Shown here: positions 808 to 51,984 of the stretch, in pieces
Position numbering within the stretch: position 1 is the first letter of the stretch
How the letters are laid out: the number at the start of each line of letters is the position of its first letter
DNA from: Eledone cirrhosa
Lineage: Eukaryota
Length of the DNA: 64,000 bases
Direction: 5' to 3'
NCBI GenBank assembly: GCA_964016885.1
Contig: OZ024747.1
Coordinates: 34,410,001-34,474,000, forward strand
Translations under genes and position numbers: made by a program
Notes under the pieces: generated by a model
The model's database searches: none
The model's input: only the letters and a program-made list of their open reading frames with translations
What the model was told of the DNA's origin: nothing

Positions 808-842
808 GTTTAAAATAGAGTGGAAAAGATGGGAAAGACCAC

Positions 843-2939
843 TTACCGTACTTTTGGTAGAGGAGGGATGGTTTTTACATCCCTTTTCACTTGATCGTCT
901 GGTGAAGGGACCGTTGAATCGTCCCTTCGGCTGGTCGTCGGCTCTTCTAAGAGAATGTCTGAATATACTCTTCGATTAATGGTTCCTCCTAGGTCCCTGA
1001 AATCACCAACTGCGTTGGGGAATTTCGTTTTAATGTTTGTGTATTGTTTCTGTGCTATTTTTAGCAGTCTTATGTTAGTTGGCGTTTTGATTGGTGCTGG
1101 TATTATGTAGTCCTGTTGTGAAATGTCTGTGTGTTCAATTATGTAAGTCATTAGTTTCTTGTTGTGTGTATTTATTGCCGTGCATTTGTTTTTCTGGGGG
1201 TGGGGTGTGGTTCTGCTATTTTCTTGTCGTTGTTGCTGGGTGTGTGTGTTTTGTTGTTGTGTTTGCGATGTTGGTGCTTGTGGTGGTGGTGTTGAAGGTG
1301 TTGTTGGCGGTGGGGTTGTCGCCGGTGGTGATGGTGGCGCTAGTGTGGGTGGTGATGGTGTTGGTGTTGTTGCTGCTGTGGGTCTCTTTGCAGTAGACTT
1401 TACCCTTTTCTCATTTCTTTCCTCACTTTTCAAAGGCGACGATGCGCTGCTTCTGCGTTTGTGCCTTCTTACGACCTTTTGCCATCTCTCTCCCACCTCA
1501 CACTCCATGTCTGATTCTGTGAGGTCGGGGAGGGGTACCAACTCCACTCTTTCACTTGTTGTTGTTGGTGATGTTTGCACTGGAGTCTCTGTTGCAGCTG
1601 CATTTGGTATTGCTGTTGTTGTTGTTAGTATTTCCACTGCTGCTGCTGTTTTTGATTTCCGTGGAGTGGGTATGGGTGCCACGGGCCTATCGTTCCTGGT
1701 TGCCGCTTGTCCTGTTGCTGGTAGCCGTGGAGCCGGATTCGGAAGGAGGGGGGTTTTCTCCTTTCTCAGGGTCTTCTCGTTGCAGAAGGCCCTGAGGTGA
1801 GTCTTCGATCCACAGCGAAAGCATTTCGGGCGTTTGCCCTCAACACTTATGGGCAGTTGAGTGCCGTTATCGAAGTCTATCACATCCGGGATAGCTTCGA
1901 TGCACTCCTGGTTGGTTTGGATTAGCATCTCAATGGAGGAGCCGACCCAATCTTCTCTTACTTTTTTCTGTACTTGCAGTACAGTTGTTTTGTCCTCGAT
2001 TCCGACGAGGACAGACGCGGCCAGCCAAGAAGGGGTCATTCCGGGGGGGACGTGGGTCAGTTTGACCCTCACAATTTTTTGCCCACAGTAGGAGGGCACC
2101 AACACCATTTCCTCGCTCCTTAGGGTCACTACTGATTGGGCCTTTGCCTCCTGGGGTGTGGCAAAAAGTACGTCTACGGTGGCATATTTTTTGCCTCGGG
2201 TGATGTGCGTTTTCCGCTGCCACACAGACCCCAAGGCTTTTTGTATTTGGGCCTCTGTGGCTCTTTCCACCCTACGGGATTTTGTACTTACTGTACGGTA
2301 CGTGACCGTACAGTGCTCTTGGGTTTCGAAAAAATTTTTCGCTGCCTTGCAGATTGCTCGGTGTCCGTTCTTTGTCACCATCTTCTTCGCTTCCTCTAAT
2401 TCCTCATTTGTTATGAGGATTGTTTCCAAATTTTTCGCAATACCTGCAAATGAGATTGGTTTTTCTCTGCTGTTGTTGTTGTCGTCAGAGCTGCTGGTAC
2501 TTTTGTTGTTGCTGCAGGTACTACGACTACTGCCTCCGCCGCTGTTGCTGTGGTTGTTGTTGGTGTTGCTGCTGCTAATGCTGTTGTTGTTTATGCTGCT
2601 GGTGATGCTGTTGCGGCTGCTACTGTTGTTTTCATTGTCACTGTTGCTGTTGTTATTACGGCTGCTACTGCTATTATTCCTGACGTCAGACGAATGAACT
2701 GGGTTTTCGTATTTCCCGCACACCTGTTTCGTCGCTGTCGTCGTCGTCGTGGAGAAACCTTGCACGCTTTGCACGAGACTTTTCTTTTCTTTCGTCACTT
2801 GCGAAAGAGAAGGGAGGGAGAGAGACACATTTAAAGAAGGGAGGGAGAGAGACAATCTTCTCTCTGCTGTAGTGATGATTGAGGAAGAAGAAGACGGAAT
2901 GAGTGGGAGTGACGTATGAAATTTCTTTTTGGTAGCCAT
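843..2939 (-). CDS. LINE ORF1 (gag-like nucleic-acid-binding protein, CCHC zinc knuckle)
   Basis: Track ORF 843..2972; first ATG in AAAC-ATG-G context at 2939. Contains the knuckle CFRCGSKTHLRAFC and Ser/Asn- and Pro/Thr-rich linkers, and lies directly upstream of ORF2. Confidence 0.88.
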   Translation of the reverse strand: MATKKKFHTSLPLIPSSSSSIITTAERRLSLSLPSLNVSLSLPSLSQVTKEKKSLVQSVQGFSTTTTTATKQVCGKYENPVHSSDVRNNSSSSRNNNSNSDNENNSSSRNSITSSINNNSISSSNTNNNHSNSGGGSSRSTCSNNKSTSSSDDNNNSREKPISFAGIAKNLETILITNEELEEAKKMVTKNGHRAICKAAKNFFETQEHCTVTYRTVSTKSRRVERATEAQIQKALGSVWQRKTHITRGKKYATVDVLFATPQEAKAQSVVTLRSEEMVLVPSYCGQKIVRVKLTHVPPGMTPSWLAASVLVGIEDKTTVLQVQKKVREDWVGSSIEMLIQTNQECIEAIPDVIDFDNGTQLPISVEGKRPKCFRCGSKTHLRAFCNEKTLRKEKTPLLPNPAPRLPATGQAATRNDRPVAPIPTPRKSKTAAAVEILTTTTAIPNAAATETPVQTSPTTTSERVELVPLPDLTESDMECEVGERWQKVVRRHKRRSSASSPLKSEERNEKRVKSTAKRPTAATTPTPSPPTLAPPSPPATTPPPTTPSTPPPQAPTSQTQQQNTHTQQQRQENSRTTPHPQKNKCTAINTHNKKLMTYIIEHTDISQQDYIIPAPIKTPTNIRLLKIAQKQYTNIKTKFPNAVGDFRDLGGTINRRVYSDILLEEPTTSRRDDSTVPSPDDQVKRDVKTIPPLPKVR

Positions 2940-3152: not shown

Positions 3153-3200
<48 letters not shown>
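3151..3200. repeat. (AAT)n microsatellite between the T2 3' end and the T1 5' end
   Basis: Visible perfect AAT run. Confidence 0.97.
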
Positions 3201-3202: not shown

Positions 3203-4646
3203 TTTCTTTATTAACCACAAGGGTTTACATAAAGTAGACATTAAGGACAGTGCAGGACAATGCAGGACGGTACAAATGGGCATTTCTGCGTGTAAAAAAA
3301 CAAAAACAGAGGATGTAACAAAAATAACAATGAAAATAACAATGAAAAATTCCCCAATAGGGGGGAGACTTCGGAGGGACATTTGTGGAGAAAGCCCAGT
3401 AAAAAGCCACAATGACCCTGACCACCAAGGCAAGTGCCCTCTCCCAGTTTTCCACCTTTAGTTTACAGATATATACTCAGAGTCGGCCCATTCACTCGGG
3501 CCATTCTTGCTTCTCTCACCCATCTTTCAACAAAATGCTGGGAAGAGAGCACTTCCCTCTCTACTCTGATTTTCCTTTTCAAATGAAATTTGAAAAAGTC
3601 AATCAGAGCATCACCGAAGAGGTAAGTGCTCGTCTTCAGCCCTTTCAAACGTGTCCACCATACTATCTCTTTCGCCATGGCCACCAGACAGATAAAAACT
3701 GCCTGCCCTTCCCGGCTAAAGGAGGAGGGCGGGGCAATCCTCACGATGGACTCAGATGATAGCTGGATCCGTCCTAAACGCGACAGCAGGTGTTCGACAT
3801 AAACCCACAAGTCAGCAATTTTCGGACACTGGACGAGTGCGTGCAGGACGGTTTCGTCGCCCTGCGCGCATCTCGGACATGCCCGGCTGACGGCACCTCC
3901 ATGCCTGTAGAGTTTATCCCGAACTTGCAAGGCTCCTCGGTAGCACTGCCAGGCCAGAGATTTCTGGAAGTTGTCCATAGGCCCCGGCCCGAAAGTTCTT
4001 CCGAAGAGATTGGCTAGTTGATTTTCGTCGACGCCTAGAGTTTCCCCAAGTACGTCGTCGCTCTTCCCCTCCACTAATCCTCTATAGAACGCCGAGGTGG
4101 AGTTTCCACCGATCACATTGCCCGATTGGTCGAGGGCTGTGAGCGCCTGAAGACATTCCAGTCTCCAGGCGCTCCCTCTCGGTCTTCGCTTGACCCAGGA
4201 CTGCAGCTCCGTCAAGGAAACGAGCTGGGGAAAAACGCGTCTAGCAAACGGCGACCACACCTGATCACCGTCGAGGAAGAGGTGGAGATGTCGTAGCCTG
4301 AGCGCGTGCCTGCGCATCATCAGCCACGGCATGCCCAGCCCTCCACGTAGCGGGTGTTGACAACAGATGGACCGCCTGACCATCGGAGCACGTCCCTTCC
4401 ACAAAAAGCGAAAGAGCAAACGCTCCAGCGCAGTCAGGCGAGGCTTAGGACAAGGTACGACGGTTAGGCGGTAGCAGATGACAGACGCGATGTACGCGTT
4501 AGCCACCTCCGCTCGACCTTTCAGGGATAGCTTCCTCTCCGCCCATTTCTGGGTGAGAGAAGCCTCCCTGCTCGTCACCTCGTCCCAGTTTTTGTCCGTC
4601 TGGAAGTCCGGACCGAACCAGACCCCTAGCAATTTAACCGGTCCGT
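3201..4646 (-). mobile_element. Tx1/L1-clade LINE copy T2, 5'-truncated (ORF2 C-terminus + 3' UTR)
   Basis: Open frame 3463..4632, then a 3' UTR ending CCCTTGTGGTTAATAAAGAAATC-(ATT)n. Confidence 0.9.
3463..4632 (-). pseudogene. ORF2 C-terminal part (RT thumb region and zf-RVT-like Cys-rich domain), 5'-truncated
   Basis: LGVWF...LSLKGRAEVAN...FLWKG...GGLGMP...CPRCAQGDETVLHALVQC, typical of Tx1/L1 ORF2. Confidence 0.88.
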
Positions 4647-5439: not shown

Positions 5440-8400
5440 CAGCGTGATAATGCCACGCAAAAATCACCGGGAGTGACGAAATCACCGGTGGTTATGTAAC
5501 CATGCATTCGCCATTCCTCGATAAGAGTGTTTAAATGTCGAACCTAAATAGTTCGAATAACGGTGAAGTGGAGACTAGAATGTCATGTGACAGACTCTCA
5601 CCCAACAGGTGCTCCCTGGCTCAGCAGCAGGGACCTGGCTTCAACCAAATACTGCTGGTGTCGGAGGAAGAAGAAGAAGGAAATGACCAGAACCAACTGG
5701 ACGAAAAAATGGAATAGAACTGTTATGCAATGTTACCTGAAGAGTAACCCCAAGGAGAAAGGCTATACGAAACGGATGCATAACATTTGGAACGAGATTG
5801 GTCTATTTAAATTAGATGAACAAAAATTGGCCGAGCAGGCTCGGATAATGGGTGATAAGCGAGCTGGAACTGGAGGAACTGAACAGAGAGATTAGCTTGG
5901 AGATGGAGAGTGGAGTATGCCATGCAAACAAGCCAGTGGGAAATGAAGGTGAAGAGGTCGAGAGAACGGAGGAACCATCCGAAGCAGACAATGATCTGAA
6001 TGCTGAAATAAACAATACCTGGAACAGAGATACGGCCACTGAGGAGATGAATGCTGACGGGCTAGGACAAGATTTGGTTGATATCGTAAACTTAGTGGTA
6101 CATGAATTGAACAATGATAGTGGGAAACCTATCAACCTGAGATTTGTAAACAGGAAAAAGTTAAAAGAAACAACAGCTAAGGTAAACAAAGTCATCCCAT
6201 ACCTTGAGGCGAGGAGCCTTCACCCGTGCAACAATATCCTCAAAGCAACAGCAAATACGATGAGGAAATTACTTGGTATAAAAGCGAGAGGAAACAACAA
6301 ACAAGAAAGATCAGAGCCTTGGTGAAAGAAACGACTGAGTGGTCAAATCAGGGAAATGAGAAATGACATTGGAAAGCTTGAGTCCCTACTGAATGGGACA
6401 CTAAAATACATAGACACTCAAAATAGACTGGAAATAAAGTACAAAACTAGGAGGAAAAAGCTAAATAATATCATAGAGGAACTGAAGCAACGCATTGTAG
6501 CAAAGAGTGCACAAATCAGGCGATACTAGAACAGAGTCAGTCAGTATAGACAGAACTGCATCTTTGACAACATCCAGAAGATGCTGTTTGGACAGCTTGA
6601 AGGGAAAGAAAGAGGCAACGACTTGATCCCTGAGGCGGAACAAACTAAAACTTTCTGGAGAGGAATATGGGAGCAGGATGTTAAACATAATGACCAGGCA
6701 GTGTGGATTGAGACAGTACAGACGGAGATTAGTGAACAGGCACTCCAACAAACTGATTTGAGTATCACGGTTGAAACTCTTAAGGGGCAGGCCAAACAAC
6801 TAACCAACTGGAGATCACCAGGCCCAGATGGAGTGCAGGAGTATTGGATTAAAAATATAACATCCCTCCACCCGAAACTGACAACCATGTTCAATGACTG
6901 CTTGATGTAAGGTGAGGTACCAGAGTGGTTGACAAAAGGTACCATAGTTCTGATAATGAAAGACCGAATCCAGGGTAACTATAGACCTATCACATGTCTG
7001 TCCGTAATGTGGAAACTGTTGACAAGCATTATGTCTGAGGAAATCTACCATCACCTCCACACAATCAACTTGTTACCGGACGAACAGAAAGGATGCCGAA
7101 AGAAGTCCCGTGGTACAAAGGACCAGTTACTTATTCATAAGATGGTAATGAGGAATTGCAAGAGGAGACACACTGGTCTTGCCATGGGATGGATAGACTA
7201 CAACAAGGCATTTGACATGGTGCCTCATTCTTGAATCACCAAAGGCCTGGAGATCTTCAGGGTGGCAGATAACATCAGACAGTTGTTGGGCAAAAGTATG
7301 AAGTCCTGGGAAACAGAGTTAACATCAGCTGGAGAATCCTTAGGAAGCGTGAAGATCAAGAGATGTATCTTCCAGGGAGATAATCTGTCCCCTCTGTTGT
7401 TTGTCCCTGCCCTGATGCCCCTGACCAGTATATTGCGAAAAGTGAGAGCAGGATACAGGTTGGGAAAGGGAGGGCTTACCATCAATCACCTCTTCATGGA
7501 CGATCTCAAGCTCTTCGGGAAGAGTGAGAAGGAGTTGGATGTGCTTGTTGACACTGTCCGTATTTTCAGCAATGATATATGTATGCAATTTGGTATTAGT
7601 AAGTGTGGAGTCCTTGTGATGAAGAGGGGTAAATTGAGCAGAAGTAACGGAATCCAGGTACCAACAGGTGAGATGATAAAGGAAATTGACACTGAAGAAG
7701 GATACAAGTATTTGGGTTTTCTGGAGTCTGATGACATTAAGAACAAAAAAATGAAGGAATTGATAAGAACTGAATACATTCGGAGAGTAAGGAGCGTATT
7801 AAAGTCACATCTGAACAGTAGGAATGCCATAAGTGCAGTAAATTCCCGAGCTGTGTCTATTATTAGGTACAGTGCGGGAATTCTGAGATGGAATGTTGCT
7901 GAACAAAAAGAAATGGATAGGAAGACTAGGAAGCTATTGACTATCTACAACATGTTCCACAAGAGGAGTGATGTCGATAGACTCTACCTAAGGAGATCTG
8001 AGGGTGGAAGAGGTCTTATCAGCATAGAGGACTGTGTTCGGATGGAGAAAAACAACCTATACAAATACGTGACCTATAGTAAGGAGCCAATGCTCAGAAC
8101 TGTACTGAAGGAGGGGACAGTAGGCCAGGGGATGTCCAAGGAGGAAATAACATCAAGGAGGAAGAGCAGCCTTAAGGGAAAATCCCTTCATGGTACCTTC
8201 TTTGAGAAAACTGAATTTAGAGATCCACAGACATGGAACTGGTTGAAAGAGGAGACCTTAAAAAGGCTACAGAAGGAATGTTAATGGCTGCGCAAGTGCA
8301 GGCTCTCAAAACGAAGTGGTTGAAACACCATATTTACAAGGAGGAGGCTAGCCCAGTGTGCAGGATCTGTGGAGAGAGAGAGGAGACTCTGGCTCACATT

Positions 8401-9071: not shown

Positions 9072-9072
<1 letters not shown>

Positions 9073-12000
9073 TTTTCTTTATTAACCACAAGGGTTCACA
9101 TAAAGTAGACATTAAGGACAGTACAGGACAATACAGGACGGTACAAATGGGCATTTCTGCGTGTAAAAAAAAAACGGAGGTTGAAATAAAATAACAAAGA
9201 AAAATTCCCCAATAGGGGGGAGACTTCCAAGGGACATTTGTGGAGAAAGCCCATTGAAAGACCACAGTGGCCCTGACCACCAGGGCAAGTGCCCTCTCCC
9301 AGTTTTCCACCTTTAATTTACAGACACATACTCAGAGAAGGCCCATTCATTCGGGCCATACTTGCTTCTCTCACCCATCTTTCAACAAAATGCTGGGAAG
9401 AGAGCACTTCACTCTCTACCCTGATTTTCCTTTTCAAATGAAATTTGAAAAAGTTAATCAGGGCATCACCGAAGAGGTAAGTGCTCGTCTTCAGCCCTTT
9501 CAAACGTGTCCACCATACTATCTCTTTCGCCATGGCCACCAGACAGATAAAAACTGCCTGCCCTTCCAGGCTAAAGGAAGAGGGCGGGGCAATCCTCACG
9601 ATGGACTCAGCTGATAGCTGGATCCGTCCTACACGTGACAGCAGGTGTTCGACATAAACCCACAAGTCAGCAATGCTCGGACACTGGACGAGTGCGTGCA
9701 GGACGGTTTCGTCGCCCTGCGCGCATCTCGGACATGCCCGGCTGACGGCACCTCCATGCCTGTAGATTTTATCCCGAACTGGCAAAGCTTCTCGGTAGCA
9801 CTGCCAGGCCAGGGATTTCTGGAAGTTGTCCATAGGCCCCGGCCCGAAAGTCCTTCCGAAGAGATTGGCTAGTTGATTTTCGTCGACGCCTAGAGTTTCT
9901 CCAAGTACGTCGTCGCTCTTCCCCTCCACTAATCCCCTATAGAACGCCAAGGTGGAGTTTCCACCGATCACATTACCCGATTGGTCGAGGGCTGTGAGCG
10001 CCTGAAGACATTCCAGTCTCCAAGCGCTCCCTCTCGGTCTTCGCTTGACCCAGGACTGCAGCTCCGTCAAGGAGACGAGCTGGGGAAAAACGCGTCTTGC
10101 AAACGGCGACCACACCTGATCACCGTCGAGGAAGAGGTGGAGATGTCGTAGCCTGAGCGCGTGCATGCGCATCATCAGCCACGGCATGCCCAGCCCTCCA
10201 CGTAGCGGGTGTTGACAGCAGATGGACCGCCTGACCATCGGAGCGCGTCCCTTCCACAAGAAGCGAAAGAGCAACGCTCCAACGCAGTCAGGCGGGGCTT
10301 AGGACAAGGTACGACGGTCAGGGGGTAGTAGATGACGCACACTCGACCTTTCAGGGATAGCTTCCTCTCGGCCCATTTCTGGGTGAGAGAAGCCACCCTA
10401 CTCGTCACCTCGTCCCAGTTTTTGTCCGTCTAGAGGTCTGGACCGAACCAGACCCCTAGCAATTTAACCGGTCCGTCCGTCCAGCGCCCGACGACGCTGT
10501 TGGACGCATGGACCTGCCTCTCCAGGTGCCGAGCTAACCGCCTCGTCTAATTTTCTACCTATTTCCCTCTCTGCTCTATTTTTCTCTATTGCTAAAGCCT
10601 TACTAAACCTAATGGACTCTATTAAAATTGCTCTTTTCAGAGCAAACCACCACTTGCTGTTGACGATGGCCCCCGTCAACGCCCGCTTAACTAGTTCGCT
10701 AATCCGGTCTCTGTAGGCCTTGCGCGCTGGTAAGGACGCGTTTAGCTTCCAGTAGCCGGGTCCTCGTCTATGAAGCCTATCTAAGTCAAGCACACAGATC
10801 ACGATTTTGTGGTCCGTCTAGCTAACTATCTTGAATTGTGGACAGCCTATGCTAGACTTATCTATTTCCCTACAAAATACTCTATCTAGATGTGATCTGG
10901 ATGACCCTATGCGATTTGTCCAAGTCCACATTGGTACATTCGGGAAATCCAATCGGTACCTGTCAGACAGTTCAAAACGCCTGAGCAGGTTGGTGAGACT
11001 CTTGCATCATCCTTCCCTATCCACTAATCCCACAGAATCCCAGCGTGCATCTAAGATCCCGTTCCAGTCGCCCACTAACACTAAAGAGCGGGACGTTCCA
11101 AGAAAGGTCTCCAGACGCCGGAAGAAATCAGGCCGCCCTGCTCCTGTCGGGGCATAGACGGCCACTAACCTGAAAGCTTGCCCATCTCCACTGGTCACGT
11201 CCAGCACCACCAACTTACCTTCTGGGTCCAGGAAGATGGCCCGTATGGCAAGATCCAAACCTCTCCGAAAAAGCACAGCAAGTCCTCCCCCCGATCCCGG
11301 ACGCCTGGGAGATGCGTACACATCGTAGCCGCCGAAGATCGGTGCGAAAGCCTGTGCTTCGGAGATTCTGGTCTCACTGATGGCCACTACATCTATGTTT
11401 AGTGACCTGAGGTCGTTGAGCAGGTGGCCCTGCTTCCATGACGACCCCAAGCCACGCGCATTTATGCTGCCTATTCTGAGTGAGGTCATGTTGAAAAGGA
11501 GTGGAAAAGATGGGAAAGACAACTTACCTTACTTCTCGTAGGGGAAGGACGGTTTTTCCATCCTTTTCACTGCTTGTGGCCTCCTCAGGAAGGATGTCCT
11601 TATAAATACTCCTGGAGAGTGCTTGTCGGAAGTCTCCGATGTCTTTGGGGAATTTTTGTTTTAGTGTCATGTACGTTTTCTGTGTGATGCGAGTGATTTG
11701 TATGTGTGGAGGTGGTGTAAATTTTGGGGTTGTTTTGGGGGTAGTCTTTTTCTGTGATGCTGGTGTTGTGTTGGATGTAGTGTAATAATTGCTTGTTGTT
11801 CAAATTTAATGCTGTGTAGTGTGTATCGTTTTGGTGGTTTTGTTTTGTTTGCGTTTGTTGTGGGTTTGCTTCTGTTTCGCATTTTGGTGACTTTTGTGGT
11901 GTAGGTGATGGTGGTGTTGGAGTTAATGATGGTGATGGTGTTGGTATTTGGGTTGATGGGGTTGGTGATGCTGGTGTGGATGGTGGCATATCTGTCCTAA

Positions 12001-13504: not shown

Positions 13505-16500
13505 TGGTTTCTTTATTGGCCACAAGGGCTGACACGAGGAAAAACATTAGAGACGTCACAGAACAGTACAGGACGATACACAGTGGGTTTTGGTCGTGTA
13601 AACAGATTATAACGAATTCGAGCTAGAAATCAAAAAAAATTCAAAAGAAGAACACGGCTACCCTGACCACCAGTTTTCTCACTCCTCAGTCTACAGGTGC
13701 ATACATAGAGCAGGCCCGTTAACTCGCACCGGACTCGCCACTTTCACCCACCTTTCAACAAACATACTAGAAAGTGTCCGTCTTCAACCCTTTCAACCTT
13801 GTCCACCACACAATCTCTTTCGCCATGGCCACTTGGCAGATGAAAAATGCCTGCCCTTCCTCCTCTTTAAAGGAGGATGGTGGGGCTATCTGCAGAACGG
13901 ACTCAGCCGATAACAGGATTCATCCTACACGCGGCTGCATATGCTAGACATAGTTCCACATGTCAGCATTCCTCGGGCACTGAACGAGTGAGTGCAGGAC
14001 GGTTTCGTCGCCCTGCGCACATCTCGGACAGGCTCGGCTAACAGCACCTCCATGCCAGTAGAGCTTATCCCGAACCGGTAACGCTCCCCGTTAGCACTGT
14101 CAGGCCAGGGATTTCTGGAATTTCTCCATAGGCCCCTGTCTGAAAGTTCTTTTGAAGAGGGCGAACAGCTGATCGTCTTCGACGCCCAGGGTCTCCCCGA
14201 CAAGGTCATCGCACTTTCCTTCCACTAGCCCTGTATAGAATGCCGAGATTGATGTTCCCCCGATACTAGTGCCCAGCTGGTAGAGCGCTTGGAGACATTC
14301 CAGTTTCCAAGTGCTACCCTCGATCTCTTCTTGATCCAGAGCTGAAACTGATGGACATCATGGATCTGCCTCTCCAGGTCCCAAGCTACAGGCCCACCGA
14401 CCTTTCCTGGTTGATCATTTCTCCTGTCAACGCCACGTATTCGCTTAGTGTAGTGCCGATCGCCTTGATATGTTTGGCCTTCGACACCACTACGGTGACA
14501 CTGTCTGCATATGCTGACACGGATCTTCCGCATCCAAGTTCGCGTGGCATCACCACATGGTCTCCAATTTGTGCAGTAATGGCTCTACAGCCAGAACGTA
14601 GAAGCGGGACGAGAGGGGACAACCCTGGCGGACCGAGCGCATGATGCTGAACTGCTGCAACAGGTGACCATTCACCCTCACAAACATCGAGCAGATACAG
14701 CCCCTAAAAACGGCGCTCACAATCGAGCAGATGTCGCTGTGCATCGCAGCGATGCAGTCCCTAAAAACGGGCCCGAACCCGGCCGACTCAAGGACCGCAG
14801 CCAGGTACCGATGGTCGACCCTATCAAATACTTTAGATTGATCCAAGTTGATCAGGGCCCCGCCACTGCCAGGTTCCTTAACCACCATCTCTATGATGTA
14901 TCGCATAAGTTGGATGTTGTCGTGGATAGATCTCACGGGAAAGGCGCATGTGTGCGCCTCCCCTACCAGATCACCGATGACAAGCACCAATCTCTTTGTT
15001 AATACCCCGGCCAATCATGAACTCTGCGTTTAGCAGAGTTATGGGCTTGAAATTGTCTATAACTTCCCCATGTTCGGGTATTTTCTCAGCAGTGCCCCCG
15101 CTTCCCGGCTCACACAACTAGGAATGATCCCGTTCTGCTGCCAGTTGCAGTAGATATCTGCCAAGAGGTCGCCGAACAAGTCTGGTATGTACGCATAAAT
15201 TACGTAGGGCAGACCCTCCAAACCTGGCAATTTACCCCTCGTGTAGTCAGACATAGCTTCCTGTATTTCACCTGTTGTTATCGGCTGTTCGCAGCACTGC
15301 GACGCAATTGTCGAAAGCCGCGGCAGTCCATCGAGGTATGCACCGAAGTCCATACTCCGATCCGGCCAGCCGCCGCTCCCGAACAATTGAGCAAAGTGCT
15401 TTTGAGAAGCCACACATATCTGCTCGTGGTCGAGCAACATGCGCCCGTTTTGATCAGGCAAAGACCGAATTGTGGCTTTGTTGCCACGTCGCAACAACAC
15501 CCCCCGGGCCCATTGAACAGCTTTCATTCCCTCGTATCTCAGAGCACGCGCTCTAGCTCTAACAACGCATCCTTCATGCTTTGCGATGAAGAATTGGTCG
15601 AGTGCTAATCTGGCCGCAAGCACGTCGATTGCGATGCCTGTCCTAAACGCCTCTTCTAGCTATCTGACTAGCTCTCCCTCTACTCTATTTTCCTCTATCA
15701 CTACTCCTTTGCTAAACCTTATCGATTCTAATCTAATAGCACTTTTCAGGGTAAATCACCACCTGTTGTTGCCGATCGCACCGTCAACGCACGCTTAACT
15801 AATTCGCTAATCCAGTCTCTGTAACCTTTACGCGCCGGCAACTACGCGTTCAGCTTCCAGTAACCGGGCCCTTGCCTATGGAGTCTATCTAAACCAACTT
15901 CAAAGATCACAAATTTGTGGTCCATGTAGTTGGCAATTATAAATTGTGGACAACCTACACTAGCCTTATCTGTTTCCCTACAGAATACCCTATCTAAATA
16001 CAATCTGGATGACCCGATGCGGTTTGCCCATGTCCACATTGGCACATTCGAATAATCTAGTCTATACTTGTCACACAGTTCAAAACGTCTGAGCAGGCTG
16101 TTGAGGCTTTAACACCCTCTCCTCTGTCTACTAACCCCACATAATCCCAGCGTGCATCTAAGATACCGTTCCAGTCGCCCACTAACACTAAAGAGCTGGA
16201 CGTTTCAAGAAAGCTCTCTAGACGTCTGAAAAAATCTGGCCGTCCTGCCTCTGCTGAGGTGTAGGCGGCTACGAGCCTGAAAGTATTGCCTTCGTTGCCG
16301 GTCAGGTCCAGCATCACCGACTTCTCTTCTGCGTTCAGGAAGATGGCCCATATGGCGAGATCCCAGCCTCTCCGAAAAAGCACAGCAACTCCTTTTCCCG
16401 ATCCCGGACTACTGGGAGATGCGTACGCATTGTAGCGGCTGAAGATCGGTGCGAATGCTCGTGCTTCGGTGATTCTGGTCTCGCTGATGGCCACCACATC

Positions 16501-18590
16501 TATGTTTAGTGACCTGAGGTCGTTGAGCAAGTGACCCTGCTTCCGAGATGACCCCAGGCCACGTACATTTATACTGCATATTCTAAGTACGGCCATGCTG
16601 GATGAGGAAACGGGCTAAGTGACAACGGAACACTTACCTTGATCGTGTGGGGAAGGGACAGTAGAACCATCCCTTCGGCTAATCATGGGTGGCTCCAATA
16701 TGATATCGGTATATATTCTTTTGGAGAGTGACCCCCTGAAATCTCCAACTGCTTTGGGGAACTTTTGCTTTAATTGTTTATAGTATTCCAGTTTAATTTC
16801 GACAATTGTAATGTTTTGGGGTAATGTTCTTGGTGTTGGTGGGGTGTGGTAATTTGAGTCTCTAATGTCTGCGTGTTGTTTTATATGTTCCATTAATCAT
16901 TTGTGTGTGATATTTATGGATGTGTATTTTTTTGTTGCTGTTTTCTTGTTGCTGTTGGTATGTGTGCTTTGTTGTGTTTGTGATGTTGCTGTTTTGGTGA
17001 GACTGGTGGTGGTGGTGTGGTTGTTGTTGGTGGTGATGGTGATGGTGGTGGTGTTGATGCAAGTCTCCTTGCAGTCTTTATACTTCTTTCTTTACCTTCG
17101 CTTTTGGAGGGAGAAACTGTGGTATTTTTGCGTTTGTTCATTTAGTTGACAAAAGTTTTCCACTCCTCTGCCGCCTAATACTCCATGTGCGACTATCATA
17201 GGTCTGGGAGGGGTATGAGTTCTACCCTCTCATTTGTTTTTTGTTGTTGTTGTTGTTGTTGGTGGTGGTGGTAGAGCCTGGTCTGCCGTTCTTGGCACAG
17301 GTGCAACTAGTGCAACTGTTTCTGTTGCTGCAGTGTCACAGACGTTGTCTTCCTACTCTCTGTAGAAGCTCCCGACTTTTTCACTGACTGCTCTGTTTCT
17401 GATGGAAGCGATTCCGCTGCTGCTTCTGCTACTGTTACCACAGGTGTTGTTGTTAATACTGCCTGTTATCTTCTGTGGGCAGAAAGCCCAGAGGTGAGAC
17501 TTTGATCCACAGTTGAAGAATTTTGGGCAGCTTCCTTCAACAGATATGGGAGCCATTCCCGAGGTCTATTACGCCGGGAATAGCGCTGATGCAGTCCTCG
17601 TCGGTTTGGATGAGCATCTCCATTCCAATATCGGACCAGTCCTCTCTCCCTAACTTTTGTACCTGCAGAATGGTTCTATCCTCGATGCCCGCAAGAACAG
17701 ACACGACCACCAAGGCATGGGTATGTAGGGCGGGACCTGGATTACCCTGACCGTTGCAATTTTTTTCCCGCAGTAAAACGGGACTAACGTTATGTCGTCA
17801 TTCAGTATAGTCCTCAGTGAGTGTGATTTTGCTTCCTGGATGGTAGCAAAAATGCCTTCTGGATTTGGACCTCGGAGGCTTTCTCCACACGACGTGATTT
17901 CGTGGCAATCGTGCGGTACGACAGTGTGCGTCGCTCTTCTTCCCCCAGGATGTCGGTTGGTGGTTTCAAAGACACTGAAAAATCAGTTCTCGTTACCTTA
18001 TATCTTGCGACCTCCATCTCCTCCTTTGTGATGATTGTTTCTATGTTGCGAGTTATTTTTGCAAAAGAGGTCGTCTCTTTTTCAGTGGCGTCATTGTTGC
18101 CACCACTACTGCTGCTACTGGTCTTGTTGTTGATGCTGGTGCTGTTGTGGTTATTGCCACTGCTACAAACGGTGTCGTTGGTGATACTGCTGCTGCTGCT
18201 ACCACAGGTGTTATTGTTAATACTGCCGCTATGGCTGCTGCTGCTACCTTCTTTGTTGTCAAATGGACCAGCAGCAGTCGCTTCTCGACCGCTGCTTGAT
18301 GAAGAAGAGAAAGAAATGTCTTTTGCCTGACTTTCACTATGTGATGATGAAGAAGACGGAAAGGAAAGCGAGACTTCACGCTGACAGATGATGAAAGAGA
18401 AGTTTGAGAAGGATACCTTGCTGAAGGAGTAATTTTTGTGTGGAGACATGTTAGAGAAACAGACATTTGAATGACGCCATTTTTCTTCTCTCTTTTTTTT
18501 TGGCCGGACGTATTTGCTAAAAGCAAAGTTCAAATTGGAATTTAGCTCCGAATGTCTAAATACCGATTAATTTCGACCACCTCCAGGGAA
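13505..18590 (-). mobile_element. Tx1/L1-clade LINE copy T4, near full length but decayed
   Basis: Fragments with APE (16057..16596), PGLEGLP, LDQSKVFDRVDH, VRQGCPLS, AYADS, and ORF1 (16615-18533). 3' end CCCTTGTGGCCAATAAAGAAAC. Confidence 0.88.
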
Positions 18591-19119: not shown

Positions 19120-20975
19120 ATGAGCCTTCGCTGTCGGTCACGTCCAGCACCATCACCTTCCCTTGTGTGTCTAGGAGGATGGCCTGTATAGCGAGATTCA
19201 AGCCTCTCCGAAAAGACACAGCAACTCCATCTCCTGCTCCTGGTCGGCTGGGAGATGCATATACATCGTAGCCGCCGAAGACCGGTGCGAAGGCTAGTGC
19301 TTCGGAAATTGTGGTCTCGCGGATGGCCACCACATCTACGTTTAGTGACTTGAGGTCATTGAGCAGGTGACCCTGCTCCATGACGACCCCATCCACGAAT
19401 AGTTATACTGCCTATTCTAAGTAAGGCCATGTTGGGTGAGGAATAGGATAGGGAAGAAATGATCACTTACCCTGTTTCCGTAGAGAATGGGTGATTGAAT
19501 CGTATATTTGGCTGGTTGTGACACCTCCTTGAGAGGTACACATACTTTTGTCAGCGAATCGCTGAAATCCCCAACCGCGTTGGGAAATTTACTCTTTAAA
19601 TTTTATATTGTTCTACATGTAGTTCAATTACTTGGGAGTTTTGGGTATACTTGATGGGGTTTGTAATGTGTAGTAGTTTCTCTGTAATTCTCGTGTGTAA
19701 TTGTGTGTTTTATCAAATCCTTATTGTCTGATTATGGCAGTGTATTTTTATTGGGGGAGGGGTCTGGTTTTCTTGTTGTTGCTTGTGTGTGTTTTGTTGT
19801 GTTTGTGATGCTGAATTAGTGGTGTCGTGTTTGTTGGTGGTAATGGTGGCGTTGGTGGTGTTTCAGATGGTGGTGGGGGCGGTGTTGCTGCAAGTCATCT
19901 TGCAGAATTTGCTTTCTTTTTTGCTTTCCTCGCTTTTGGATGGTGAAGTTGCGCTGTTTTTTCGTTTGTTTTTGTTGCAGACCGTTTTCCACTTCTCTGC
20001 CGCCTCATACTCCATGTCCAACTGTGAGAGGTCGGGGCGGAGTAGGAGTTCTACTATCTCATATGTTTTTGTTGGTGATGTTGGTGGTTTTGGAGCCTGG
20101 TCTGCCTTTCTTGGCACAAGTGCAACTAGTGCGGCTGTTTCTGTTACTACCACTGCTACGCTGTTTTTTTGTCCTTGTCCTTGGAGTGGGTTCCACGGAC
20201 GTCGTCCTCCTGCGATCTGGTAGAAGGTACCGCCGTCCTCGCTGCCTGCCCAGCTTCTGATGACAGCGGTTCCGGTGTTGGAAGGAGGGGTACCTTCACC
20301 TTTGTTATCTTCCGTCGGCAGTATGCCCTGAGGTGAGACTTCAATCCACACTTGTAGCATTTTAGGCGCCTTCCTTCCAGAGATACGGGAAGTTGGGAGC
20401 CATTTCCAAGGTTTATTACGTCGGGAATAGCTCTGATGCAGTCCTACTCGGTTTGGATGAGCATCTCCATTCCAATACCGCACCAGTCCTCTCTCCCCAG
20501 CTTCTGTACCTGCAGGATGGTCATTTTGTCTTCGATGCTTGCAAGGAGAGAGACGACCAGCCATGACACGGACGTAGGGCGGGACCTGTGTCACCCTGAC
20601 TTTTGCAATTATTTTCCCACAGTAAAATACTATTTCATCACAGACTAAGTTTGTCCAAGAGTCAGATTTTGCGTCCTGGGTGGTATTAAAAGGAACGTCC
20701 ACAGTATCATATTTATTGCCTCGGGTGATGTGAGTTTTCCGTGCCCACACAGTCACTTTTGTATTTGAGCTTCAGTGGCTCCGTCGACACGACGCCATTT
20801 CGTGTCAATTGTGCTGTAAGACACCGTGCGTTGCTCTTGCTCCTCCTTGAATTCAGTTGGAGGTTTTAGGGAGACTGAACAAATTCAATTCTGGTCACCA
20901 TGTGTCCTGCAACAGCCATTTCCTCCTCATTGACTAGGGCATCTTTAAGTTGCATACCTCCGCCGCAAAAAGAGA
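19120..20975 (-). mobile_element. Tx1 copy T6 fragment (ORF1 and first part of APE), decayed
   Basis: QGHLLNDLKSLNVDVVAIRET (19055..19396), THITRGNKYDTVDV and the knuckle region (19863..20756). Confidence 0.85.
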
Positions 20976-23445: not shown

Positions 23446-23468
23446 TTTATATATATATATATATATAT

Positions 23469-41606: not shown

Positions 41607-42810
41607 ATGCCTTCTTTATTAACCACAAGGGTTTACACAAAGTAGACATTAAGGACAGTACAGGACAATACAGGACGGTACAAAAGGGCATTCCTGCGTG
41701 TAAAAAAACAAAAAAACAGGATGTAATAATAGAACAATGAAAAAATTTCCCAATAGGGGGAAAGCTTCCGAGGGACATTCGTGGATGAAGCCCATTAAAA
41801 AAAAACAGTGACCCTGACCACCATGGCAAGTGCCCTCTCCCAGTTTTCCACCTTTAATTTACAGACACATACTTAGAGTAGGCCCATTCACTCGGGCCAT
41901 TCTTGCCTCTCTCACCCATCTTTCAACAAAATGCTGGGAAGAGAACACTTCCCTCTCTACCATGATTTTCCTTTTCAAATGAAATTTGAAAAAGTTAATC
42001 AGGGCAACACGGAAGAGGTAAGTGCTCGTCTTCAGCCCTTTCAAACGTGTCCACCATACTATCTCTTTCGCCATGGCCACCAGACAGATAAAAACTGCCT
42101 GCCCTTTCCGGCTAAAGGAAGAGGGCCGGGCAATCCTCACGAAGGACCCATCTGATAGCTGGATCCGTCCTACACGCGACAGCAGGTGTTCGACATAAAC
42201 ACACAAGTCAGCAATGCTAGGACACTGGGCGAGTGCGTGCAGGACGGTTTCGTCGCCTTGCGCGCATCTCGGACATGCTCGCCTGACGGCACCTCCATGC
42301 CTATAGAGTTTATCCCGAACTGGCAAAGCTCCTCGGTAGCACTGCCAGGACAGGCCAGGGATTTCTGGAAGTTGTCCATAGGCCCCGGCCCGAAAGTTCT
42401 TCCGAAGAGATTAGCTAGTTGATTTTCGTCGACGCCTAGAGTTTCTCCAAGTACGTCGTCGCACTTCCCCTCCACTAATCCTCTATAGACCCTCAAAGGT
42501 GGAGTTTCCAACGATCACATTGTCCGATTGGTCGAGGGCTGTGAGCATCTGAAGACATTCCAGTCTCCAAGCGCTCCTTCTCGGTCTTCGCTTGACCCAG
42601 GACTGCAGCTCCGTCAAGGAGACAAGCTGGGGAAAGACGCGTCTAGCAAACGGAGACCACACCTGATCACCGTCGAGGAAGAGGTGGAGATGTCGTAGCC
42701 TGAGCACGTGTCTGCGCATCATCAGCCACGGCATGCCCAGGCCTCCACAGAGCGGGTGTTGACAGCATATGGACCGCCTGACCATCGGAGCGCGTCCCTT
42801 CCACAAAAAC
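41607..42810 (-). mobile_element. Tx1 copy T7, 5'-truncated (same subfamily as T2/T3)
   Basis: CPRCAQGDETVLH, GGLGMPW; 3' UTR nearly the same as T2/T3. Confidence 0.9.
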
Positions 42811-46302: not shown

Positions 46303-46324
46303 AATAATAATAATAATAATAATT

Positions 46325-46525: not shown

Positions 46526-49500
46526 ATTTCATTTATTGGCCACAAGAGCAACATATAGGGGACAACACAAAAGACTGGGACAGTGGGGTTTTACAGAAAA
46601 ACCGAGTAAACAATATGAATAACAATAACAAGGTAACAATAAAATTACAAGAATAATTCCCCAATGGGGGGGATGACCACCCAGGATTCGCTCATGTACC
46701 CCACCAATCTTGAACAACCCGACGCTTCGAGAGCTCCCTGGAAAGACATCTCTCTCCTCCTCACCTACAGGAACATAACCAGAATAAGCCCCCTCACACG
46801 GGTCATTCTCGCAACATTCACCCACCTTTCAGCAAATGTACTGAGGGCAGCACTTCTCTCTCCACCCTCACCTTCCTTTCCAAGTGAAACTTTAAAAAGT
46901 TGATGAGGGATTGACCGAAGAGAAATGTGTATGTCTTCAGTCCTTTCAACCTCGTCCACCATACAACCTCTTTCGCAACTGCCACCAGACAGAGGAAAAT
47001 TGCCTGCGCTTCCTGATCAAAAGAAGGCGTCGGGTCGATCTTCACTGTGGATTCGGCAACAGCTGTTCGACATAACTCCACAAGTCAGTAATGCACGGAC
47101 ACTGGACGAATGCGTGCAGAACGGTTTCGTCGCACTGCGTGCATCTCGGGCAGGTCCGTCTGACAGCACATCCGTGCCTGTAGAGTTTATCTCGAACCGG
47201 CAGGGGCCCCCGGTAGCACTGCCATGCGAGGGATTTTTGGAAATTGTCCATCGTCCCCGGCTCGAAAGTCCTCCGGAACAGACTTGTTAGTTCGACGCCC
47301 AGAGCCTTTCCGAATGCGTCGTCGCACTTGCCCATTACTAATCCTCTATAGAACTTGAGGGTGGAAGTTCCACTGACCGCATTGCCCTCCTTGTAGAGAG
47401 AAATGAGTACCTGGCGACCTTCCAGATGCCAGTCACCCAGTCTCGGTCTCTTCTTGACCCAGGACTGCAGCTCAATCAAAAAGATGAGCTGCGGAAATGC
47501 CTGTCTGACAAACGGCGACCACGCCTGTTTACTGTTTAGGCAGAATACCTGGAGATGGGGCTGCCTCATCGCGTGTCTGCGCATCATCAGCCATAGCATG
47601 CCCAGCCCTCCACGTAGTGGTCGCTGGCAGTAAATGGACCGCCTCACCAACGGAACCTGACGCCTCCACAATAATTTGAAGAGGTGGCATCGGACGACGG
47701 CCAGACGTAGCAGATGACGGACGCGATGTACGCGTTCTCCACTTCCGCCCGACCATTCAGTGATAGCTTCCTCCCAATCCATTTCTGGGTGAGACTGGCT
47801 ACCATGCTCATCACCTCGTCCCAATTCTTATCCACCTGGAGTTCTGGCCCAAACCAAACCCGAACAACTGAACCGGTCCGTCCGTCCAGCGCCCAACGAT
47901 ACTGTTGGATGGCATTGACTTGCCTTCTCCAGGTGCCGAGTTGCAAGCCCACCGACTTTTCCATGTTAAGTTTTGCTCCCGTCAAACTTTCATATTTCTC
48001 CAATAAGTTGCCGACCACCTCGATTTCTGAGGTGTCCGACACCATCACGGTGATGTCATCCACATAAGCCGACACAGCCTTTCCGCGTCCCGGTTAAAGC
48101 GGGATACCCTGCTTCCGCTGTAAAAGCTCGAGAGTCAATATGTACAGAAGGGAGGAGAGAGGGCACCCTTGACGAACCGACCGGGAGATCTGAAACAGTT
48201 CCGAGAAATGGCCATTCATTTTGATCACCGAGCAGGTGTCGCTGTGCATTGCAGCGATCCAGCTTCTGTGGACGAGGCCGTAGCCAGCCGCCTTGAGGAC
48301 AGCCTCCAGGTACCGATGGTTGACCCTATCGAAAGCTTTCGATTGATCTTAATTGATCAGAGTCCCACCAAACCAGGTGTACACCCTACCCTCTCTATGA
48401 TGCACCTGGCCAAAATCTTAAACTCTGTATTGAGCAGTGTTATGGGCCTGCTCGTAGGGCAGACTATCGAAATAGGGTGACTTGCACCTCATGCAGCCGA
48501 CAAGGGCATCCTGAATCTCGGCTGAAGTAATCGGCCTTTCTCAGCGCTCGGCGTCGGCCGTCGAGAACTGCCGCAAATCATCGAGGTAGGGACTGAAGTC
48601 CGCAACCGTGTCTTAGACGCCACTTCCCCCGAACAACCGAGCAAAATGGTGGCGAAAGGCCTCACACATCCAGTTGGAATCGCTCAGGTCGTGTCCATCT
48701 CGTTCCGTCAAAGACCTAATCATGGTTTTATTAACACGCTGCGCCTCTGCCATGCGGGCCTATCGAAAATCTTTGGTTCCCTCGTTTCTCAGAGCATGCG
48801 CGTTAGCTCTGACAATGCACCCTTCGTGTTTTGCATTGAAGAAATGGTCTAATGCAATTCTCGCCCCTAGCATGTCAGTTGCACTGCCACTACAAATAGC
48901 CTTGTCTCACGTATCTACCAACTCCCCCTCCTTTCTATTTTACTCTCACGCTACTTCTTTGCTAAACTCTATCGACATTACTCTAATCTCTCTTTTGAGA
49001 GCCCCCCCCCCGCCCTCCATATATTGTTTATGACTTCTCCTGTCAAATGTTTCTTCACTAAATTATTGACCTGGTCTCTGTAAGCGTTAGGTGTCGGAAA
49101 TGACATGTTCAGATTCCAGTAACCAGGTCCTAACCTACGCGTCTTATCTACGTCGACCATACAGATCACAAACTTGTGATCTGAATAGGCGACCGTTTTA
49201 AAACGAGGACAGCTTACACTATTTCTGTCTATTTTGCCAATGAATATCCTGTCTATATACGATCTAGATGACCCTACGCGGTTAGTCCAGGTTCACACTT
49301 GCGCATTAGGGAAATATAGTCGGTACCTGTCAGACAGTTGGAAATGGCGGATCAGATTCTTGAAGCTTTTGACCCCCTGCTCCTATCGGATACTTCCACA
49401 CAGTTCTAGCGTGCGTCTAAGATGCCGTTCCAGTCCCCCGCTAAAAGTAAATGGCGAGACGTATCCAGAAAGGCTTCCAGGTGTCTAAAGAAGTCCGGTA

Positions 49501-51984
49501 GTCCTGCGTCAGTAGAGGCGTAGACGGCCACCAGTCTAAAGGCACCACCTTCGTTATTGTTCACATCCAGGACCACCAACTTCCAGTCCGAGTCCCGGAA
49601 GATCGACCTTACCTCGAGATCCAGGCCTTTCATACACAGCACTGCCACCCCACCACCCATTCCTGGCCGACTAATAGATGCAAATATCTGATAGTCGTCG
49701 ATAATGGGGATCAGGTAGCACATGTCGGAAATCCTGGTCTCGCTTACGGCAATTACATCCATTTCTCGAGACCTGAGGTCGTTGAGCAGGTGACCCTGCT
49801 TCCAGGACGAGCCCAGTGTCGAACATTTAAACTTCCTACTCTTAATACGGCGATGTTGGCAGGTTAAAGAAAGAGAGGAAAGGTTTACTTACCTTCCGGG
49901 CACTTGTGAAGGTCGGGTGGTTCGACCACCATAGTTGGTGGGGTTATTTTGGGGAACCCCTTTAAATGTCTTGAAGTGGGTTTTACGTATCTCTTTGTAT
50001 AAATCATGCGACATTCGTACCAGAACGCGAAATGTGCTCGATTTAAACATGTCCCCCTCTCTTTGTATTTCTTCACTTCGTGCTACGAGGGCCATGAGTT
50101 CTTTGTTGGTCCTCCTGAGGAGCACGAAGTTTTGTATGTTTTGTTGGTGTGATTTTATTTGTTTGTGTGGCAGTGGTGGTGATGATTTTGATGGTGTTGT
50201 TTCGGTTGTGTCTGTGTTTGTTGTGAGTGCGGTGTCTGTGGTTTCAGATGTTTGTGTGGGTACTTGTTCTTGTGTCTGTTTAGGTTATTTGCGTTTGGGG
50301 GATACTGGTAATTGTTATGGGGTGTTGATGTTGGTGTTGACGGGGAGATGTTTGCGATGGAGGTGGCTGCATTTTTTATTGTGGGTCTTTTTGAGGTTTG
50401 TTGAGTTTTTTTTTTTCATTTTGTGTTTCCTTTTTTGTATTTTGGGGGATTTTGGTTTTCCCTCATCTTCACTACTGGTAAATGAGAGTGTCTGTAAGTG
50501 GGTCTGTGTGTGTGTTTATATTTTTATTTATGTGTGTATTTTTTTGCGGGGGGGGGGAGTTGACAACTTTCCACGTTTCTCCCCTGGGTTGTCAATGTTG
50601 GTGGTGGTCTTTCTATTGGTGTTGTTGCTGGTGGTTTTGCCGTTGCTGGTGTTGGTTGTGGTCCTCGCCCCGGCGTCAGCAGCAGTGGGGCCCTTCGAAC
50701 CGTTGCATCTTTAAGCAGTTGAGGTAGGAGGCTCGCAAATGGGTCTTTACTCACAAACAATGCGGCATTTTGCACTCTGTCATAAATTCTATGACCGACC
50801 CATTCTGAAGGCGGATTTGGTCCGGGATTGTCTTCACATTCTCTGGCCTGATCTGGAGAAGTATCTCCAGGTCAAACCCGGACCAGTCTTCTCTGGCAGT
50901 TCCTGTCACTTCTATCGGGAGGGTTTCCGTCCCCTCCACAATCACACATCCCAGAAGCCACCACATGTCAAACCCTGGTGGGATCCTGGGAATGCGGAGA
51001 CGGGCTGTTCTTTTTCCCATGTGGAGAGGTACATTATGATCTTGCTGGTTTGCAAGGTGTCATAGCGTGTTTCATAGCGAGGGCTTCTGACTTAAACAGC
51101 ACCGAAATGATGCCGTATTGTCTGCCCCTCGCTATGTGTTCGGTATCATCTCTGATGCACCTCAGCGTGACGTCGACATCTGCTTGTGCAATTAAAGCAG
51201 CCCTTTTGGTTTGTGTTGAGATGCATCTGTAATGCACCGTTCTGCGCTCCACTGCCTCAATAGCTTCTACCGGGACAGTTAAGTTGGCCCAGGTTTGCTC
51301 TTGCTTGATGAGCTTCCAGGCCTGTGCCAACTTTTCATCTTTATTTGTTAGGTCTATGTTGATGCATGGCCTCTTTTTCGCTGCTGCTGCAGCGAAACCT
51401 TTCTGCCTGTTGTCGTTGGGGGTGTTGTTGTCGTTGTTCTTGTTGGTGTTGTTGTTATCACTGTCACTGTTATCATTGTTGTCTTTGGTGCCATTGTTGT
51501 TCTCGGTGCAGTTGGTATTGTTGCTGTTGGTGTTGTCGGTATTTGTTTTCTTGTTAGTGGTGTTGATATTGTTGTTGCATTTGTCATTTTCTTTGTTATC
51601 TGTATTTCCGTTGTCGCTGTTACTGTTATCTTTTTCAAAATTAGAGTTCTCAGTGTTGTTATCATCGCTGTCTTTGTTCACGTTGTTTGTGGTGGTGCTT
51701 GTTGTATCAATTTCTGTTAATTTCACCGTAGCGCTCATCTCAACTTCTACGTCGTCTTCAGACGACAGCAGAGTGTTTTTTTGTTTTTTTTCTCGATAAT
51801 ATTTTAAAATTTAAAAAAGTTCAAATATTTGGGCCAAATGGCCCAAATATTATACTTTCCCCTTCACAGGGCAAACTTCGAGGGCTTGTATGCCTTACAC
51901 AACAACAAAAAATTAAATAAATAAGTTTTGACAGGTAAATAAATAAACTTACGAGAGCGAGCAAAAAGACGTCCGTTCGGACCC
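46526..51984 (-). mobile_element. Tx1 copy T8, full length, decayed, distinct subfamily
   Basis: ORF1 fragments (51034..51738, 50751..51020), APE (49406..49762), AYVDD (47644..48075), CPRC knuckle. Both ends abut (AAT)n. Confidence 0.88.

Follow-up and report, generated by a model that had tools for sequence, protein, structure and literature searches.

A clade-specific, U1 donor-like RNA motif at the ORF1/ORF2 junction of Tx1-like LINEs in Eledone cirrhosa

In long interspersed nuclear elements (LINEs), the excess of the product of open reading frame 1 (ORF1) over that of ORF2 is usually put down to poor reinitiation on one RNA. Here, we describe the ORF1/ORF2 junction of a Tx1-like LINE in a 64,000-nucleotide stretch of the Eledone cirrhosa genome (assembly GCA_964016885.1, contig OZ024747.1, positions 34,410,001 to 34,474,000; hereafter, the window). 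Five copies of this element carry a motif with the sequence of a perfect 5' splice donor, G/GTAAGT, between the two frames (a slash marks the putative or observed junction).

As far as the accessible portions of the cited papers go, the Ty1/Copia element EVD of Arabidopsis makes shGAG by splicing, in which a conserved U1 donor and a stop just past the junction yield a gag-only mRNA (PMC5580714). The human L1 SpIREs result from splicing within the 5' untranslated region (UTR) or into ORF1 and are described as dead ends; the same paper warns that a conserved donor may be kept for another reason, a RUNX3 site (PMC5860796). In L1 and SART1, ORF2 is made by termination-reinitiation (PMC5972666). 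Tx1-clade elements of the L1 group, including Kibi, Koshi and crocodilian Tx1, are known for their target preference (PMC4494074), and L1-Tx1 families are named as recently active in Octopus vulgaris (PMC13282606). Among the papers listed by searches of the open-access literature, no title or abstract opening describes a LINE junction donor, an ORF2 acting as an intron or a start/stop duplex, and neither "splic" nor "intron" was found in the accessible text of the Octopus vulgaris paper (PMC13282606) or of a gastropod LINE survey (PMC11203168).

The window is repeat-rich and holds decayed as well as young copies of two LINE types. The first is a two-ORF element in which a CCHC ORF1 is followed by an APE endonuclease, a reverse transcriptase (RT) and a zf-RVT domain; the ORF2 domains PF03372, PF00078 and PF13966 were matched in results pooled over different copies. 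The Tx1 label, taken from the initial annotation, fits this predicted architecture. The element resembles the Tx1 clade in its two ORFs and their domains, its short repeat tails and its head-to-tail stacks, but the accessible parts of the Tx1 accounts in PMC4494074 and PMC13282606 do not mention a junction donor, removal of ORF2 or a start/stop duplex. The names T1, T3, T4 and T8 are those of the initial annotation, T5 is the copy at 19470, and T2 (stop 3463), T6 (stop 41859) and T9 (stop 52193) are 3'-end-only copies. The five G/GTAAGT 9-mers reported by the initial annotation at the junctions are all present at their minus-strand positions, and are given here with their ranks by predicted U1 pairing:

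841..849, minus strand: T1 donor ACG/GTAAGT, phase 2, TAA is the ORF1 stop; rank 1 of 147 GT sites
11522..11530, minus strand: T3 donor AAG/GTAAGT, phase 2; tied first of 186 GT sites
16632..16640, minus strand: T4 donor AAG/GTAAGT, phase 1, ORF1 continues six codons to TAG; rank 1 of 294
19465..19473, minus strand: T5 donor AGG/GTAAGT, phase 1, ORF1 ends QGK-TGA; rank 1 of 79
49887..49895, minus strand: T8 donor AAG/GTAAGT, phase 2, the sole open upstream frame; rank 1 of 289

Among the GT sites of each copy, the donor is thus first in T1, T4, T5 and T8 and joint first in T3, as scored by predicted pairing with the U1 5' end. In an alignment of the five copies, GGTAAGT forms an invariant run of 7 columns at 5/5 junctions, while the next-longest run nearby has 3; the rough probability of such a run by chance is 8e-4 if columns are treated as independent. 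The flanks differ strongly, as had been noted, with only 30 of 173 gap-free columns of the ORF1 end and 4 of 29 spacer columns invariant. Window-wide, GGTAAGT is not enriched (11 seen against 8.4 expected), so it is its position that counts. Further occurrences near these elements, an antisense one at 3622, 9477 and 42018 (TSTYLF codons) and one at 11218 within the T3 endonuclease (EGKL), were set aside as coding by-products. Downstream of the donor, T1 and T3 are 95-96% identical, and the other lineages are 68-87% identical in the endonuclease start; the near-identity of T1 and T3 reduces the five copies to about four lineages.

The TAA within GTAAGT is the ORF1 stop in T1, T3 and T8 (phase 2), and the motif is shifted in T4, both as previously described; the description needs correction for T5, which shares the phase 1 of T4 (Q-G-K). 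A pyrimidine-rich spacer leading to the ORF2 start was also confirmed (71-84% pyrimidine; donor-to-start distances of 39, 38, 41, 40 and 38 nt), except that the start codon of T8 has decayed to ATC. The persistence of the motif through a phase change and at varying distance marks it as an RNA-level motif. Folded locally, the five donors give only weak hairpins (-2.1 to -6.5).

Related sequences were also found in public sequencing runs, six of which were listed, none on record as RNA; the contigs examined, from X1, X2, X3, X5 and X6, are of unrecorded kind. In the T1 family, A accounts for 56-62% of the summed contig depth at exon position -2, which makes the optimal AAG/GTAAGT. Across the T1-family contigs of X2 and X3, variation reaches at least 3% at 8 of 171 places, and seven quiet places would be expected about 7 times in 10. 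This family is young and has few variable places, and invariance of the donor among its contigs is therefore uninformative.

The initial annotation placed the donor in every Tx1 copy, which applies within this clade and not beyond it. Among 78 distant L1/Tx1-like loci, 47 had a match starting at residues 1-10 and 46 of these, many of them near-duplicates, had enough upstream sequence; in the 100 nt before ORF2, GGTAAGT was present in 0/46, GTAAGT in 1 and GTRAG in 6 (backgrounds of 1.6% and 10.8% for the latter two). A junction donor as a general Tx1/L1 property is ruled out by this result. One distant locus, L048, has a good donor of different sequence at -32. Scans for related loci were blank both for a single endonuclease in metagenomes and for an alignment in viral and prokaryote collections.

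At the protein level, word-indexed searches with ORF1 gave no match, whereas a full scan did yield homologs, 9 distinct ones reaching the conserved C-terminal box. Phase-1-like C-termini (DQGK and EGKS) occur in 2 of these 9 complete ORF1 homologs, compared with 1 of 145 other proteins, and one of the two is an Argonauta protein model. These GK endings, observed in proteins, hint that the donor may be old within octopods. Separately, six distant loci (L001, L004, L005, L006, L008 and L038) have long, acceptor-like pyrimidine tracts ending in CAG or AAG shortly 5' of the ORF2 ATG, which makes an ORF2-only or trans-spliced RNA possible in another L1/Tx1 lineage; no pairing was seen between the L001 tract and its ORF2 stop region. 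From the conservation and range of the junction motif, we conclude that it is a real, clade-specific RNA element.

The reading that we favor, to which we give close to an even chance, is that GGTAAGT is a working U1 donor, throttled by RNA structure, which would remove ORF2 to give an ORF1-only mRNA; this is predicted from sequence. The only evidence that the donor was ever used is a chimeric join in T1:

847..890, minus strand: T1 join 890/889 plus the 43-nt T3-type ORF1 end behind it
11570..11572, minus strand: CAG of the T3 ORF1 end that corresponds to the acceptor side of the T1 join

The ORF1 end of T1 consists of two tandem homologous units. Unit 1 matches T4 up to the base before the T4 donor, and unit 2 (43 nt) is 83% like the last 42 nt of T3 and begins where T3 has CAG/TG. 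In seven contigs from X2 and six from X3 (the same sample), a T1-like ORF1 end is followed exactly at 890/889 by its own GTAAGT and pyrimidine tract, and the T3-type CAG/TG side is found in 3, 1 and 1 contigs of X3, X5 and X6, respectively. The public contigs thus document both parents, and the join coincides with their GT and AG. Such a join is as expected of a retrotransposed splice product, although a template switch at the edge of a paired region would fit as well. The head-to-tail stacks (T2 on T1, T9 on T8) make read-through between copies plausible. As in the SpIREs, T1 is joined exactly at a parental GT and AG, with a template switch possible through the 2-nt AG overlap; unlike the SpIREs, the join links two subfamilies and leaves both ORFs open, and the joined form, with ORF1 intact, predominates among the contigs examined. 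At the 890 loose ends (X2, X3) of the T4-like parent, an 8-nt perfect inverted repeat of the donor was seen by eye 7 nt downstream; the donor of that parent could hide in a local hairpin.

Splicing that removes ORF2 would end at an acceptor near the 3' end of the element. Candidate sites, ranked with a crude, home-made acceptor score, are as follows:

46765-46767, minus strand: T8 ORF2-stop TAG as candidate acceptor, then G-TGA; rank 3 of 240 AG sites
13686..13693, minus strand: T4 ORF2 stop TAG as candidate acceptor, then AC-TGA; rank 10 of 238
9157..9181, minus strand: T3 3'UTR acceptor-like site, T tract and CAG, 161 nt past the ORF2 stop; rank 1 of 178
3286..3310, minus strand: T2 homologous 3'UTR acceptor-like site; rank 2 of 89
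41694..41718, minus strand: T6 homologous 3'UTR acceptor-like site; rank 1 of 75

ORF2 of T4, T8 and T9 ends in CTG TAG, where T2, T3 and T6 have TAA; in T9 the TAG is followed by AC-TGA and ranks only 34 of 148 as an acceptor. A candidate acceptor AG at the ORF2 stop is thus present in 3 of the 6 3' ends, and the other 3 have the 3'UTR site, 161-177 nt into the 3'UTR, whose use would add 20 codons and a stop before AATAAA. In simulated splices, phase-1 donors joined to T4 or T9 ends give D-stop and phase-2 donors joined to the T8 end give R-stop, while crossed donor/acceptor pairs run on for at least 20 codons. Both copies that hold their own two ends plus the AG (T4, T8) match in phase, and the predicted spliced and unspliced proteins of T8 are identical. 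The simulated stop falls at the next codon after the junction in T4 and T8 and 20 codons later in T3, and a comparison with copia on this point is confounded by the duplex described below.

The predicted system shares with EVD shGAG, as far as the latter's accessible account goes, a conserved canonical U1-type donor, a purpose (excess structural protein) and a possible dual role for U1. EVD, however, carries long terminal repeats (LTRs) and a single long gag-pol ORF; its intron is short and surrounds the protease, and its RNA undergoes premature polyadenylation (PMC5580714). The element here is a two-ORF non-LTR element, whose intron would span the entire ORF2 and whose native 3' end would be retained. 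EVD splicing was shown on RNA, whereas that of the LINE is predicted from its sequence. By analogy, then, the LINE would work like copia structural-protein splicing and is not a member of that system.

A further property of the junction, missed by the initial annotation, is that its pyrimidine tract is best read as one arm of a predicted long-range duplex:

11469..11528, minus strand: T3 5' arm (donor, pyrimidine tract, ORF2 start)
9284..9342, minus strand: T3 3' arm, ORF2 stop 9318-9320 with the 34 nt of 3'UTR directly behind it, which contain the anti-donor CACTTGCC
787..847, minus strand: T1 5' arm
3429..3487, minus strand: T2 3' arm, in the upstream stacked copy, ORF2 stop 3463-3465 TAA; with T1 -56.0, z -5.9, best of 738 windows
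41814..41886, minus strand: T6 3' arm region, ORF2 stop 41859-41861 TAA; with T1 -57.8, z -6.5
49835..49892, minus strand: T8 5' arm, weaker duplex, donor mostly unpaired; -39.8, z -2.2, not best of 866 windows
46729..46788, minus strand: T8 3' arm, ORF2 stop TAG 46765-46767
52159..52218, minus strand: T9 3' arm, T4-like lineage, ORF2 stop TAG 52193-52195; with T5 -52.1 (z -4.4), with T4 -48.5 (z -2.6)

In this duplex of 42-46 predicted pairs, the pyrimidine tract is matched with purine-rich sequence at the beginning of the 3'UTR, and the ORF2 start with the codons preceding the stop, a layout that would cover donor, ORF2 start and stop/acceptor together. For T3, the junction and the stop region of the same copy give -57.6 kcal/mol (z -5.0, 0/500 shuffles, best of 581 windows). 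In the reverse scan, T3, T1/T2 and T5/T9 came first, T8 second and T4/T9 fifth. When the donor part is left out, the 5' arms pair best with the 3' arm of their own lineage in 5/5 cases, which points to covariation. Two results count against the duplex: T4 with its own 3' end gives no significant pairing, the anti-donor part being missing from its 3'UTR, and the two ends of T8 score no better than z -2.2. Only the anti-donor stretches of T2/T3/T6 pair strongly (-9 to -15); that of T9 pairs weakly and those of T4 and T8 hardly at all (-3.9, -3.4), yet every copy has a perfect donor. In all four pairings that cover it, the donor +2 T faces G; C would be about 2 kcal/mol better, and silent in phase 1, but T is kept. 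The predicted duplex does not, then, fully explain the conservation of the donor.

A start/stop duplex may recur in other L1 lineages. In L012, about 18 pairs are predicted between 1830-1885 (ORF2 start) and 5645-5715 (bases just past the stop), ranking 1 of 453 windows, and in L013 a G-to-A change near 1420-1485, in the 5' arm, keeps the pairing. Generality was not shown in the set of 12 distant loci, where 7 had the stop in the contig and 1 of those 7 ranked first. Compared with L1 and SART1, the present junction likewise has a short spacer and a separate ORF2 start, and RNA structure near the junction matters in SART1 according to the accessible account; what sets the predicted structure apart is that the junction finds its partner at the ORF2 stop, 3.4 kb away, and that a splice donor is covered.

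Taken together, a working donor is favored by its maintenance in two phases within flanks that are 17% invariant and by its best or joint-best U1 match in every copy. It is further favored by the retention of the +2 T against a better-pairing C and by the perfect donor in T8 and T4, where the 3' arm barely pairs, as well as by the T1 join at GT/AG, the GK-ending homologs and the own-lineage pairing of the arms. Removal of ORF2 in particular is favored by the phase-matched stops and by the finding that the lineage without an AG at the stop has a top-ranked 3'UTR acceptor (ranks 2, 1, 1). The functional donor proposed by the initial annotation is accordingly retained as a probable RNA-level U1-type donor, on the strength of its two phases, its U1 match and the T1 join, and the ORF1-only RNA proposed with it gains candidate acceptors only.

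Several observations weigh against a working donor that removes ORF2. The acceptors at the ORF2 stop are modest (3/240, 10/238, 34/148) and absent from T2/T3/T6. A TAG stop supplies an AG in any case, and the TGA behind it is part of the purine arm, which means that the duplex and the regenerated stop are not independent features. The T1 join is one event, found after the fact, with a weak acceptor context; its parents share AG (a 2-nt overlap), and T1 has one extra G relative to T3 just past the join. The joint left by an internal deletion in T3 (10530-10540, most of the RT lost) likewise follows an AG and has no known GT on its donor side, and AG joins can therefore arise without splicing. 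No spliced RNA was seen, and contigs from X1, X5 and X6, of unrecorded kind, run through the donor unspliced. At the donor loose ends, 3'UTR sequence was found in none of the 19 listed out of 91, and 0 of 2 joints start at the donor, suggesting that processed copies lacking ORF2 are not common. Three to four contigs show no GTAAGT in the 30 letters given, reflecting either a possible exception or a longer spacer. Among the complete ORF1 homologs, a GK ending is missing from 7/9, and R, G or W endings occur in 0/9. Finally, L012, a vertebrate-like L1, has its start/stop duplex (z -4.9) without GTAAGT, and the duplex may thus have a job of its own.

This last point leads to the alternative in which the duplex itself is selected, for ORF2 reinitiation or RNA packaging, and the resemblance to a donor is a by-product of stop codon and pairing. 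We consider this unlikely, yet a serious contender. The stop region is the strongest partner of the junction in T3 and T1/T2 in both scan directions, with the donor covered there, the L012 duplex lacks the motif, and SART1 requires RNA structure downstream of its stop-start site, according to the accessible part of that study (PMC5972666). However, the invariance of the donor extends to copies with a weak or missing partner arm (T8, T4) and to copies in which it does not serve as a stop codon (T4, T5), its +2 G-U is never repaired on the donor side, and the T1 join falls at the donor.

U1 might instead bind with splicing being rare, so that cryptic polyadenylation in the A-rich ORF1 end is suppressed or the RNA is held in the nucleus. 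The HIV-1 major donor provides a precedent, as it suppresses an upstream poly(A) site. In T1, T4 and T8, AATAAA/ATTAAA hexamers precede the donor by 137-330 nt, the LINE donor is far better conserved than any acceptor, and U1 also blocks premature termination in EVD, as its accessible account states (PMC5580714). On the other hand, the ORF2 sequences of T3, T4 and T8 together contain only a single AATAAA and the 846 nt of T1 contain none, and this alternative leaves the phase-matched stops and the T1 join unexplained; on balance, we find it unlikely too.

That the motif is a remnant of shared ancestry and chance, with no present function, is improbable. The window contains only about four lineages, and the young T1 family is mostly invariant anyway (8/171 places vary), but the lineages are 68-87% identical even in the endonuclease, their flanks are 17% invariant, the motif outlasts a phase change and the duplex co-varies. 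Least probable is a mini-intron of 52-55 nt that would begin at the donor, end at the first AG past the ORF2 start and fuse ORF1 to ORF2: it would be in frame in T1, T3 and T8 with the pyrimidine tract inside it, but T4 and T5 would lose the frame, an ATG of its own is available to ORF2, the AG belongs to an Arg codon of a conserved endonuclease strand, and the 846-794 joint is seen in 0 of about 990 contigs, though the cis preference of LINE retrotransposition would make intron-less copies common.

The remaining features of the window concern the proteins and the repeat landscape:

843..2939, minus strand: T1 ORF1, intact, 698 aa, RNA-binding core and CCHC knuckle; named relatives are octopod proteins
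1..807, minus strand: T1 ORF2 start (APE endonuclease), continuing past the window edge

A Pfam search with ORF1 gave zero hits; the CCHC knuckle is visible in it, and the nearest Atlas clusters are zf-CCHC/ZCCHC3-like (0.91-0.93). Among named proteins, the relatives of both ORFs come from Octopus and Argonauta, which points to an octopod host. Some host gene models contain pieces of the element's endonuclease or ORF1, as in P0003 (Octopus sinensis tectonic-3-like), P0067, P0076 and P0078, and are either exonised or misannotated. Tx1-like copies end in (ATT)n tails and adjoin other copies or elements of the second LINE type. The T2 (ATT)n tail adjoins the T1 5' end (3153-3200) and the T9 tail the T8 5' end (51985-52005); stacking of this kind would be expected if the element inserts into such repeats. 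The second LINE type appears R4/Dong-like, a label of our own based on protein motifs. Its elements (5479-9071, 38102-41600, 43306-46323 and 55221-58270) have restriction-like endonuclease motifs and (TTA)n tails and are interleaved with the Tx1-like copies; both types lie inside a block that is 82% identical between 5479-10262 and 38102-42809. The AT-rich middle of the window holds fold-back inverted repeats of 200-1200 bp, 87-90% self-complementary, at 26522-27698, 25768-26150 and 23465-23664. An Rfam search gave 0 matches.

If the donor works as we favor, U1 would bind it as it is made. The 3' end would appear about 3.4 kb later, and splicing would then compete with closure of the duplex, which would mask the sites. 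The acceptor used would be the AG at the ORF2 stop in copies of the T4/T8/T9 type or that in the 3'UTR in copies of the T2/T3/T6 type. Splicing would leave the native AATAAA and tail in place and give an RNA with a short 3'UTR and an ORF1 ending 1-21 codons past the junction, which would supply the large excess of ORF1 protein that a LINE particle needs. The unspliced, paired RNA would give ORF2 by reinitiation and would be what is copied into new insertions. Where elements are stacked head to tail, the donor would occasionally be joined to a site in the following element, and T1 likely arose in this way. The fuller version of this proposal, in which the whole RT gene is a regulated intron, a co-evolving 3.4-kb duplex masks both of its sites and splicing across stacked copies makes new subfamilies, is more doubtful than donor use itself.

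Should the favored reading be true, this LINE family would have arrived independently, in a non-LTR element and with a simple switch, at a copia-like answer to the need for excess ORF1 protein. The T1 join would then represent a mechanism for the swapping of ORF1 between LINE subfamilies. Moreover, the thousands of strong donors contributed by a very abundant family could trap host transcripts.

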